DNA of 64,000 nucleotides from positions 2,976,001 through 3,040,000 of the forward strand of contig OX597821.1 of NCBI GenBank assembly GCA_951406725.2, read 5' to 3'. Under the pieces are notes generated by a model, which saw only the letters and a list, made by a program, of their open reading frames with translations, did no database searches and was not told where the DNA came from. The DNA is from Octopus vulgaris (Eukaryota). Shown here piece by piece: positions 6,076 to 59,213 of this stretch. Position 1 is the first letter of the stretch, and the number at the start of each line of letters is the position of its first letter. The position numbers and the translations under genes were made by a program.

Positions 6076-6158
6076 TTTTCCTGATGAGAAAGCGGCATAA
6101 TGTACTCCTTATTCCTTCACAATTTGGAATATTGAGCCTTCGAAACATATGTCGAAAA
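6076..6158 (+). ncRNA. Type I hammerhead ribozyme motif
   Basis: ttttc-CTGATGA-gaaagc...gccttc-GAA-ACATATGT-C-gaaaa. Complete core, palindromic stem III, GUC cleavage triplet. Confidence 0.85.
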
Positions 6159-6366
6159 TAAAGGAATTTTGTTAATTCATCGTTCAGCTCCATTCTTTCA
6201 TATATAAATTATTATATATATATATATATATATATATATATATATATATATATATATATATATATAATTATTATTATTTTTATTATTATTAAAAATTTCT
6301 TTTTGTTTTTATGTAAATATAACTATCAAAATGTATTAATAGTTTAATATAAGATAAAGAGTAAAA

Positions 6367-6463
6367 CCACTACGATCGTTTCATGCCCATAACCTAATTG
6401 GAATAACAAGAATCTAAATTCAATTAATAAGTCGAATAATGGTTATAGTCAATCTTCAGGTTA
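6367..6463 (-). ncRNA. Type I hammerhead ribozyme motif in an AT-rich element (~6290-7480) between (TA)n tracts
   Basis: Minus strand: taac-CTGAAGA-ttgactataacc...ggttatgggcat-GAA-ACGATCGT-A-gtgg. Long imperfect stem II, weak stem I. Confidence 0.7.
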
Positions 6464-7957
6464 ATGATAATATTTAAATAAATAATCAAAAATATTTAAA
6501 CAATATTTTTAAAGAAATAAATAAATTAATAATTTTTCTTTTAAAAAACTCTATTATCAAACTAGAAACTTTAACGATTATGATTATGTCATACAATCGA
6601 TTATAATATTAAATATTAATATTCAAGTATTAATTTTTAAGGTAAAAATCCAACAAATAATCTAATCTCAGTTACAGTCAATATATAATTTTACATACAT
6701 TTTTTACAAGACAAAAAAACTATTCATATTATTAAATATAATTTCAAGTCAAATTATTATATAATATTTGAATAATAACTAAATTATCAATGAAAATATA
6801 TAAATGTATATAAATATAAGAATTAAGATCTAAAATTATCTCTATTAATAAATATATATGCACGTATAATAAAGACCTAGTAAATTAATTATTCATTATT
6901 ACTTATAAAAATATTCAAAGATTAAAGATAAACAAACAAACAATCTTAAAAGAACGCTATAACTAATTAAAGATCCATATATCTCGTTGGCTAACTAATA
7001 AACTTCAAAAATCGCATAGTTAAGAAACTAAAACGAAATTATAAAATACTTAATGTAATAATCAATCCTTATTTATATAGTATCAAAATAAATACTACAA
7101 ATATATTTATCAGTGGAAGAAATATTACTACCAATTATCAATTTAAAAAAAAAACAATGTATAAGTTACAATAACAATTTAAGATAACTATCAATAATGT
7201 AGTTATTTAAGACTAAAATGTATGCTATCAATACATGTATATACATGAAACCTAACTTTAAAAAACTCGTATAACTGTTAACGATCTATATATCTCTTTG
7301 GCTAAGTAAAGTCTTACGAATAAACGTAAAGTTAAAATCTAATAATTATATAGAAAAAACTACGATAACTAAATCATTACATAACCATCAGTATTTATAT
7401 AAAATACAATATTATACAATATGACGTTAAAATATTTAAATTTTAAAATTTAAAAATCCTAAATATAAATATATACTTAGCTTTGCGAGGTTTTGTATAT
7501 ATATATATATATTTATTTATATATATATATATGTATATATATATATATATATATATATATTATATATATATATATATATATATATATATATATATATATA
7601 TATATATATATATATATATATATATATATAGACAATTATCAGCCTATTTGGTTCAGTGCATGCAAACCATTCTGAATTTTGTTTTCTATTTTCTGAACGC
7701 CGTTCCCACAGTTGTCAGTTATTAGCCTTCACTCTTCGAGCGACTTTAAATTAAAGTAACCATCATAAATAAATTTATATTAAAGAAAAAGATCATGTGC
7801 TCTGCACGATGTTTGTCGATGTATGCCTTGAAAAAAAATTATAAAATCCCAAACTATTGAAACCATTCTCTCTGAAATGATTGAAATGATTTCATTGTTT
7901 TGCACAAATAAATATATTTAAGTGAGAGGAGGTTTACCGATGCAAAGTTTAATCAAT

Positions 7958-8336
7958 TACTCTCTCTTTTACTCTTTTACTTGTTTCAGTCATTTGACTA
8001 CGGCCATGCTGGAGCACCGCATTTAGTCGAGCAAATCAATCCCAGGACTTATTTTTGTAAGCCCAATACTTATTCCGAAGCATTATGTTAAGGCATCGGT
8101 TATCAGGCGAGGTTGGTGGGGTGGTGGACAAACACAGACACACAAACATATTCATACACATGCATATATATACATATGTAAGACTGGCTTCTTTCAGTTT
8201 CCGTCTACCAAATCAACTCACAAGTCTTTGGTCGGCCCGAGGTTATAGTAGAAGACACTTGCCCAAGGTGCCAGGTAGGGGACTGAATCCGGATCAATGG
8301 GATTCGTAAGCAAGCTACCTACCACACAGCCACTCC
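7958..8336 (-). mobile_element. tRNA-headed SINE family A (LINE-derived tail)
   Basis: Reverse complement of the family A pattern: head ggagtggctgtgtggta, ccttgggcaagtgtcttctac, tail gctccagcatggccgtagtcaaatgactgaaacaagtaaaagagta. Confidence 0.9.
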
Positions 8337-57400: not shown

Positions 57401-58499
57401 TAAAGCGTGGTGCAGATGAAATGTTATAAGATCGAATTCGACAGGATCTCTTGAATGGTCAGATATTTTGGAGACATTGGTAGCAGTTAAGTGAATCGAA
57501 ATCGTGTTCTTTAGATGGTGTTCACTTCGTATATAATGATCCGATTTCGATTTCTAAATTTTGCTAACCCTAAATATTCCTGCTGCAATGTATAAAAGGT
57601 TTCAACTGAAATACGCACATGCTAATTAATCTTGTGTCCCTACTGCTCATTAAAGTTTATTTCTTTGACAAATGTCACTATTCGACTATCTCTCTGGATA
57701 AGACAAGTCACGCTTAATCTTTGGCAAAGGAAGATGGATTATAATACTTGGTTTTTTAAATTATATTAAAAAATTAACTTTAACAAATACAAATATTTGC
57801 GTAAGGCGCTGTTGAGTGTGAAGCGTTTAAATAGAATATGAATAAATATTTACATACCAATGTTAATTAAATAAGCCATACTACATGTCAAAGCCCTTTC
57901 AGTTTATGATTATATCTCAATAGGTTTTGTTATTCTGTCAATGTACAAAAAAAAATATAACACATTGTTATAATTCAGTTCTGAAGATGGTATTTCCTTC
58001 TATATCATCCACATATAGAACTCTAAGACACTCTAAGACACAGGCCTGAGATCCACAAAATGTGGTTATTTTCAACAACACCCTGGTCGAAGCTATCAAG
58101 AAACCATGTTAATATTTCTTTTCATAAAAATTTAGATTAAAATGCAATTTTTGTTAAACCAATAGCATCTATTTGGCTTGGTGTTGCAAAAAATGATACT
58201 AGGTTCCATGCTGGGATGTATAATATATATATATATATGTGTGTGTGTGTTTGTATACGTATGTATGTGTACGTATGTATAAGTATATATATATATATAT
58301 ATATATATAAATTTATTTATTTATATTTATATATATGTATATATACTTATATATATATATATATTTATATATATATATATATATACATATATATGTATAC
58401 ATATATATATATATAGATGTATATATATATATATATGTACATTTATATGTATATATATATATATGTATATGCATACATATGTTTATATATATACATATA

Positions 58500-58890
58500 T
58501 ACTCTTTTACTTCTTTCAGTCATTTGACTGCGGCCATGCTGGAGCACCGTCTTTAGTCGATCAAATCGACCCCGGGACTTATTCTTTGTAAGCCCAGTAC
58601 TTATTCTATCGGTCTCCTTTGCCGAACCGCTAAGTTACGGGGACGTAAACACACCAGCATCGGTTGTCAAGCAATGCTAGGGGGACAAACACAGACACAC
58701 AAACACACATATATATATGCATATATACGACAGCCTTCTTTCAGTTTCCGTCTACCAAATCCACTCACAAGGCATTGGTCGGCCCGGGGCTATAGCAGAA
58801 GACACTTGCCCAAGATGCCACGCAGTGGACTGAACCCGCAACCATGTGGTTGGTTAGCAAGCTACTTACCACACAGCCACTCCTGCGCCT
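58500..58890 (-). mobile_element. SINE family A, full length
   Basis: Reverse complement of the 10171-10619 pattern, flanked by (TA)n on both sides. Confidence 0.92.
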
Positions 58891-59170
58891 GTATATATAT
58901 ATACATATATATATACATATGTATATATATATATATATGTATATATATATATATATATATATATATATATATATATATATATATATATATATATAATAAA
59001 TATTAGGGAATAAATCCAAATTTACAGGGAAAAAATCAGATTTAGGATTAAATCCAATTTTATAGTAAAATATTATAAAATATTATTAGAGACAAAACCA
59101 CTATTTTGCAAAACAAACAAGGAAAGACTTAATCAATACATAAAATTTTAATAAATATTCAAAAAAACCG

Positions 59171-59213
59171 CCACTACAATTGTTTCTTGTCTTGATCGAC
59201 AATCTTCAGGTGG
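59171..59213 (-). ncRNA. Compact intact type I hammerhead ribozyme
   Basis: ccac-CTGAAGA-ttgtc gatcaa gacaa-GAA-ACAATTGT-A-gtgg. All stems are Watson-Crick and the core is canonical. Confidence 0.88.

Follow-up and report, generated by a model that had tools for sequence, protein, structure and literature searches.

A 64-kb window of the Octopus vulgaris genome (C8:2976001-3040000, contig OX597821.1; "the window" is this whole stretch) carries a scattered set of hammerhead ribozyme motifs with a self-complementary stem III segment (Table 1). The window is AT-rich and contains many microsatellites. A preliminary description of this DNA, whose site numbers are kept here as names, had placed a palindrome between GAA and the cleavage base at ten sites. 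The order GAA, palindrome, H is indeed present at 10/10 of them, and the cut base is A or C and lies directly 3' of the palindrome, although the positions given mostly mark stem I, not the palindrome itself. Across the window, 11 of the 19 sites matching GAA-AC-NNNN-GT-H are palindromic, compared with a mean of 0.45 and a maximum of 4 in 200 dinucleotide shuffles.

In their type I topology (stems I and II) and in a short stem III that is palindromic together with loop 3, the sites match the minimal hammerheads of Penelope-like elements (PLEs). The core CUGANGA...GAAA...UH is canonical at five of the ten sites, and U3-A8, A3-U8, A6U, U3.G8 and U4C occur in the other five. A canonical core combined with stems I and II is found at three sites (6076, 34691 and 59171), family-typical variant cores at three (U3-A8 at 41931, A3-U8 at 51443 and A6U at 28715) and lesions at four (6367, 23938, 13779 and 11056). 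Stem I retains at least three pairs at seven sites, off-register at one of these, and is worn at the other three.

Table 1. Hammerhead motifs and associated element in the window (positions numbered from its first nucleotide).
Feature	Position	Strand	Palindrome	Description
Type I hammerhead	6076..6158	+	ACATATGT 6145-6152	Intact CUGAUGA core (6081), long stem II, cut C6153, 5-bp stem I; lineage 2
Decayed hammerhead	6367..6463	-	ACGATCGT 6372-6379	CUGAAGA core from 6459, 2-bp in-register stem I, worn stem II
Decayed hammerhead	11056..11182	-	ACAGCTGT 11061-11068	U4C core CCGAAGA from 11178 (~105 nt upstream), ~100-nt stem II, worn stems
Hammerhead	13779..13823	+	ACTATAGT 13809-13816	U3.G8 core, 6-bp stem I; single copy in sample
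Hammerhead, absent from preliminary description	15240..15319	+	ACCGCCGGT (9-nt near-palindrome)	Intact core, 7-bp stem I
Hammerhead (site 23938)	23945..24027	+	ACACGTGT 24019-24026	CUGAAGA core, long stem II, stem I absent in register
Hammerhead relic, absent from preliminary description	27896..27981	-	ACATATGT 27903-27910	Mutated core CCGACGG, 6-bp stem I
Loopless minimal hammerhead (site 28715)	28720..28753	+	ACGT 28746-28749	A6U core CUGUUGA; very abundant family
Intact hammerhead (site 34691)	34690..34775	-	ACATATGT 34697-34704	6-bp stem I, 11-bp stem II
Inverted 5'-truncated copy of 34691 element	34812..34910	+	34850-34857	3' half of stem II and palindrome, no core
5'-truncated PLE	40946..42135	+		Open reading frame (ORF) end 40949-41779, then its terminal repeat
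Hammerhead in PLE terminal repeat	41931..41969	+	ACCGGT 41957-41962	U3-A8 core UUGAAAA (41938), 2-bp stem II, stem I one base off register
Hammerhead	51443..51477	-	ACCGGT 51449-51454	A3-U8 core AUGAAUA (from 51472), 2-bp stem II, 5-bp stem I
Intact hammerhead	59171..59213	-	ACAATTGT 59176-59183	4-bp stem I, 5-bp stem II

The claim that the palindrome differs by family fits these sites poorly. The two listed ACATATGT sites, 6076 and 34691, are a single lineage (78% identical). Sites 41931 and 51443, which both carry ACCGGT, differ in core and stem I and represent separate families; the original list thus already contained a shared palindrome. ACATATGT also occurs in the 27903(-) relic, whose stems I and II are unlike those of 6076/34691. 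Relatives of the 59171 hammerhead carry ACGATTGT and ACGATCGT, the 13779 hammerhead is ~72% identical to the ACTGCAGT lineage, and the 23938 hammerhead has no relative in the sampled loci. The 11056 site has a 94%-identical relative (L081, 749-885, minus strand) with the predicted fold of a full double hammerhead; the U4C core and the ~100-nt stem II are present in both copies of this family (2/2). Relatives of the 15240 hammerhead (lineage 11, including L217 and L305) carry the non-palindromic ACCGAGGT. In a dimer, ACCGAGGT would form tandem G.A pairs (predicted -6.6 kcal/mol), and tandem G.A pairing is a stable motif.

The 41931 hammerhead lies in the terminal repeat of a PLE. The truncated ORF upstream of it is 97.8% identical to residues 528-798 of an 811-aa reverse transcriptase (RT)-endonuclease ORF and has, besides itself (100%), 140 scored genome copies at 97-98% identity, many in 811-aa frames. 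The 811-aa ORF matches RVT_1 (E=2.8e-7) and, more weakly than the Pfam cut-off, GIY-YIG (E=0.068); no match was found in the PDB. At locus L284, a partial tandem, two identical hammerheads on the same strand as the RT ORF flank it with a spacing of 3,995 bp, and a third is inverted, the Penelope-like layout described in PMC8557442. Hammerheads in terminal repeats flanking an RT and GIY-YIG ORF, partial tandems and inverted 5'-truncated copies have thus been shown for the 41931 family only; the architecture of the other lineages makes a link to PLEs likely. Among 147 centred motifs (1.5 kb), 110 are solo, 26 have only an inverted partner and 11 have a same-strand partner.

Several further features were seen at L284. 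A 495-aa ORF (3130-4617, minus strand) has no Pfam match; it runs in a different frame from the PLE RT ORF, overlaps the start of the latter and is likely ORF1. Among the differences listed from four sequencing runs (contigs, in which RNA ends are not visible), no substitution falls inside the hammerhead. In run X9, which can only be guessed to be RNA, clusters of A>G and T>C surround the terminal repeat (4663-4812) and resemble the outcome of adenosine-to-inosine editing of inverted repeats.

The genome (2.8 Gb, 227 contigs) was searched with several hammerhead patterns and their reversed controls. Matches numbered 12,411 for a 4-nt loop with short stem II (control 611), 30,825 for a long stem II (875), 4,848 for a 2-nt loop (669), 29,905 for loopless motifs with core position 6 relaxed (1,217) and 3,395 for variants with a 2-bp stem II (1). 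The sum, overlaps still included, is 81,384 (controls 3,373), and at this abundance the window is ordinary for its genome. A count of odd loops (NNN; 2,279 vs 585) was dropped as evidence, since a further GT behind loopless ACGT motifs accounts for many of its matches. A weak scanner call at 30116-30149(-) was excluded. Of the 171 Rfam matches in the window, the 150 listed were microsatellite-driven microRNA matches and included no hammerhead.

A stem-checked motif scan of 383 loci plus the window (981 kb in total) gave 375 calls, representing 266 unique motifs, compared with 1 in the reversed sequence. Copies were grouped by flanks and stem II only, giving 59-99 lineages across thresholds. 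Because many loci had been picked by loop class or by eye, a strict loop-blind subset of 117 of the 266 copies was used, consisting of the first 30 matches of two loop-blind patterns, incidental matches and the window. Loci L304-L343, chosen by eye with loops visible and some non-palindromic matches passed over, were left out of the strict test. Palindrome uniqueness and hetero-pair compatibility were analyzed on 55 lineage representatives.

The preliminary description had read the changing palindromes as covariation, and this is borne out at the level of lineages, inner pair included. Among the 26 lineages of the strict loop-blind subset with a 4-nt loop, 23 have a Watson-Crick inner pair, compared with 6.7 after shuffling, and 0 of 20,000 shuffles reached as high a count. 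Perfect palindromes occur in 20 of these 26 4-nt-loop lineages (2.5 shuffled), with three wobble and three neither. A hairpin leaves no room for this inner pair. Of the 117 strictly blind copies, 115 have an even loop length, and palindromes range from 4 to 12 nt. Genome-wide, the four of 16 purine/pyrimidine classes capable of self-pairing hold 10,180 of 12,411 four-base loops (82%) vs 123 of 611 controls (20%), copy counts that are dominated by large families.

Paths of change were followed on trees built without loop III, from short alignments with midpoint roots. Three paths, ATAT>ATGT>ACGT, AATT/GATT/GATC and TCGA/TCGG/CCGG, each lie inside single lineages, and the first of them is placed on internal branches. 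Each G-U intermediate is predicted to pair with the palindromes before and after it in the path (0.5-0.98, lineages 0-2), and the end-points of the paths to pair with each other at only 0.00-0.08. The fixation of G-U intermediates on internal branches points to RNA pairing rather than a DNA site.

The core also shows compensated change. Among the first 100 of the 3,395 listed 2-bp-stem-II matches, scored by eye, the 3-8 pair is U-A in 58, A-U in 33, U.G in 6 and unpaired in 3, with G3 excluded by the pattern. The U3-A8 variant is published (PMC4209133); alongside it, A3-U8 cores occur here as AUGAAUA or AUGAUUA with a 2-bp stem II (stem I described from one copy), and no natural A3-U8 core was found in the literature searched under one spelling. 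Compensated changes at the inner pair, the 3-8 core pair and stem I indicate that selection on the RNA fold has continued. In the very abundant loopless family, most listed copies have U at core position 6 (CUGUUGA/CUGUAGA), and A6U may weaken or silence the ribozyme. A bulged base after A9 with a G10.1-C11.1 pair was seen in loopless ACGT families, and many 4-nt-loop lineages have a mismatch or another pair there.

Folding predictions are consistent with the dimer mechanism that the preliminary description had invoked, which agrees with the literature (PMC4209133, PMC6765202); in PMC4209133 the single motif is inactive and dimers are weakly active. A stem III hairpin is predicted to cost +2.4 to +6 kcal/mol and the self-duplex to gain -1.7 to -11.1 kcal/mol; for ACGT and ACCGGT no useful hairpin can close. 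The probability of C15.2-G16.2 in a monomer is at most 0.07 in 11/11 cases. When two strands were folded without constraints, 6 of 12 homodimers from the window had the swapped double hammerhead as their minimum free energy structure; four of these sites are in the original list. Because A15.1 of one strand pairs with U16.1 of the other, the geometry entails a swap of stem I, and each junction therefore receives its cut base and its 3' stem I arm from the partner.

Together these results favour, with a probability of about 0.75, a reading in which the sites are minimal type I hammerheads, mostly isolated relics and likely of PLEs, with a self-pairing stem III, drifting palindromes and a specificity that is a by-product. 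Stem III, unable to close in one copy, would be paired by two copies, and stem I would swap so that the core of one strand holds the cut site of the other. If a tandem transcript carries two identical terminal repeats, these would fold into a double hammerhead that cuts both copies, and any palindrome would meet the pairing need. As any palindrome satisfies self-pairing, lineages could drift among palindromes, often in two transitions, the first giving a G-U intermediate and the next restoring Watson-Crick pairing. Like-with-like specificity would arise from stem III and stem I jointly, not from a selected code. Dimer cleavage itself is suggested by analogy with PMC4209133 and the reviews PMC6765202 and PMC6466107.

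The further proposal that distinct palindromes insulate co-resident families from each other is upheld in one respect: different palindromes are predicted to block stem III, with only 176 of 2,970 ordered hetero pairs compatible and a mean penalty of ~9 kcal/mol. As a family code it is not supported, since palindromes are re-used across lineages, vary within lineages through wobble bridges and show no character displacement. AGCT is found in 8 of the 55 lineages and TGCA, ATAT, GATC and ACGT in 5 each, and lineages 0, 1, 2 and 8 each contain 3-4 self-pairing states, perfect or wobble; one palindrome per family, distinct between co-resident families, is not the pattern observed. Because several families use one palindrome, a role as the dedicated barcode of a family is unlikely.

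Stem I, which the insulation proposal had left out, is equally discriminating because the strands must swap it in the dimer. Stem I (at least 4 pairs) is compatible in 159 of the ordered hetero pairs and both stems in 27; the mean penalty is 9.4 kcal/mol for stem III and 7.0 kcal/mol for stem I, and stem I alone excludes 95% of hetero pairs and stem III alone 94%. In the window, families with the same palindrome are predicted to pair stem III at 0.92-1.00 and stem I at 0.00, and among 110 hetero pairs only 34691 on 6076, members of one lineage, passes both stems. Palindrome re-use, wobble paths and discrimination by stem I together suggest that self-pairing and drift most likely give rise to like-with-like cleavage as a by-product, and the code idea survives only in that predicted form.

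A selected dimerisation code, in which palindromes unlike those of co-expressed families are favoured because foreign or non-autonomous RNAs impose a cost through trans-cleavage or poisoning, is unlikely. The 19 different perfect palindromes (4-12 nt) among the 55 representatives, the ~9 kcal/mol cost of a palindrome mismatch and the existence of sister subfamilies with compatible stem I and incompatible stem III (AATT vs GATC, TA vs AT) would suit it. However, two lineages share a palindrome with a probability of 0.12-0.16, above and not below the 0.06 expected under uniform use of 16, and lineages compatible in stem I are more often compatible in stem III (0.17 vs 0.053 otherwise; 4,999 of 5,000 permutations, which ignore ancestry, at or below the observed value). 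This association is opposite to displacement, no over-dispersion was found, and shared ancestry probably accounts for the joint compatibility. In addition, wobble subfamilies persist and bridge the codes, stem I by itself blocks most hetero pairs, and tens of thousands of loopless motifs all carry ACGT, which is fixed by the pattern, other loopless pairs lying outside the search. Cis pairing in tandem transcripts needs no code. An elaboration is equally doubtful: stem III and the swapped stem I would form a two-key RNA compatibility system in which a G-U crossing frees a subfamily from trans-cleavage by its sisters and by non-autonomous parasites, is favoured and helps to drive the turnover of subfamilies.

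Several results weigh against the favoured reading of self-pairing PLE hammerheads with drifting palindromes. An AATT enzyme with a GATC substrate is predicted to pair stem III at 0.01 and stem I at 0.98, so that the end-points of sister subfamilies would be insulated by stem III alone, as originally proposed; this insulation is predicted to be reached through steps that retain compatibility, with no clear acceleration seen. Stem III changes on internal branches number 1.17 vs 0.92 per other column (18 loop columns, in a sample enriched in loop variants). Palindrome re-use is partly common descent, as the TCT/AGA-like stems I of AGCT lineages indicate, and the dispersion tests thus cannot separate drift from weak selection. 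Half of the window homodimers (6/12) do not adopt the active-form fold. The PLE ORF is firmly tied to one lineage; a same-strand match lies upstream in 6 of 49 lineages (1.5-kb flanks, one query), five of these being one locus each. The 11 of 147 motifs with a same-strand partner all come from one satellite-like lineage, and most copies therefore have no close cis partner.

Slightly less probable than a selected code is a ribozyme that needs the protein of its own element as a chaperone and that transposition can do without, with specificity set by protein-RNA recognition and pairing rules minor. The anole PLE hammerhead cleaved only after addition of PLE protein, in vitro insertion was unaffected by hammerhead mutants, and RNA-seq gave no reads with an end at the cut site (PMC11167929). 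Activity is low even for dimers (PMC4209133), and the abundant family here carries A6U at the position where A6C is reported as low-activity (PMC3088659). The compensated inner pair, 3-8 core pair (91/100 Watson-Crick, by eye, among the matches listed) and stem I argue for continuing selection on the RNA fold, and a chaperone would be compatible with self-pairing and drift rather than exclusive of them. A monomeric hammerhead with an ordinary 2-bp stem and tetraloop, or a palindrome that acts in the DNA, such as a protein site, with dimers irrelevant in either case, is very improbable. With A15.1-U16.1 and C15.2-G16.2 as its stem a 4-nt loop is formally possible, and palindromy is missing in 3/26 strict lineages, but neither the complementarity of the inner pair nor the even loop lengths would be expected of a hairpin, and none of use can close in ACGT and ACCGGT. 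Against a DNA site, the fixed G-U intermediates point to RNA pairing.

Other repeats were noted in the window. A perfect hairpin at 13228-13350, with ~60 bp per arm and CTGAAGA...GAAAC in each arm, may be an inverted pair of element ends. An inverted, 97%-identical pair at 27249-27344(-) and 29665-29759(+) carries GAAACACGTGTA, and no hammerhead core was found upstream of it. A long interspersed nuclear element with endonuclease and RT domains and one stop between them lies at 1671-4622(-). Fragmented ORFs with DUF4371 occupy 52480-54264(+), and we take these to resemble a hAT-type transposase. Outside the window, two tandem arrays (G000:C1:33099609-33105375 and C1:71597378-71601789) consist of ~545-bp units with one ACGTACGT hammerhead each; the cut site is mostly GUU or GUA, and the units are retrozyme-like.

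With tens of thousands of motifs in dozens of lineages, this genome offers a rich example of a known system. Compensatory evolution can be read here at a base pair open only to a dimer, and the sequences thereby lend the double-hammerhead model independent support. With the natural sister variants, the specificity of homodimers and heterodimers could be put to a direct test, and the same variants might find use as orthogonal self-cleaving parts. Selected insulation would mean that retroelements interact through their ribozymes in trans, and the A3-U8 core, if unreported so far, would extend the natural 3-8 pairs. A proposal or test of family insulation or heterodimers was not found in the literature searched, which did not cover the key paper of Lunse et al., so its absence is unproven; no paper on hammerheads in octopus was found among the matches listed.

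Penelope-associated hammerhead variants cleaving as dimers were reportedly described by Lunse, Weinberg and Breaker (RNA Biol 14:1499), and the double hammerhead of avocado sunblotch viroid (ASBVd) and newt is said to go back to Forster in 1988. The feature described here is real, its mechanism is known and its members are new. The minimal hammerheads of metazoan PLE pseudo-long terminal repeats (Cervera & de la Pena 2014, PMC4209133) share the type I topology, the short stem I, the palindromic 15.2-16.2 pair with loop 3, the many covarying consensus families per genome, mostly as single copies, the close inverted pairs, the U3-A8 core variant and the proposed dimer cleavage. Unlike those, the octopus motifs mostly have a 4-nt palindromic loop, often an A.A, C.A or U.U mismatch where G10.1-C11.1 would close the base of stem II, and stems II that reach 60-100 nt, and A3-U8, A6U and U4C cores recur; pairing between families is not discussed in the available parts of that paper. 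The Penelope-associated dimer-cleaving variants, as summarized in PMC6765202 and PMC6466107, likewise have a diminished palindromic stem III, a tandem arrangement and dimer cleavage. Non-LTR retrozymes (PMC7229834; bioRxiv 10.64898/2026.07.22.740005) resemble the ACGTACGT lineage, which is absent from the window, in their same-strand tandem arrays with one hammerhead per unit, but the ACGTACGT units (545-560 bp) are longer than the 170-400 nt reported for retrozymes. Differing palindromic stem III/loop III sequences that allow dimer pairing were already listed by Perreault in 2011 (PMC3088659, Fig. S8C legend). That list compares ribozymes broadly, whereas here dozens of lineages reside together in one genome, and the paths of change among their palindromes can be traced.

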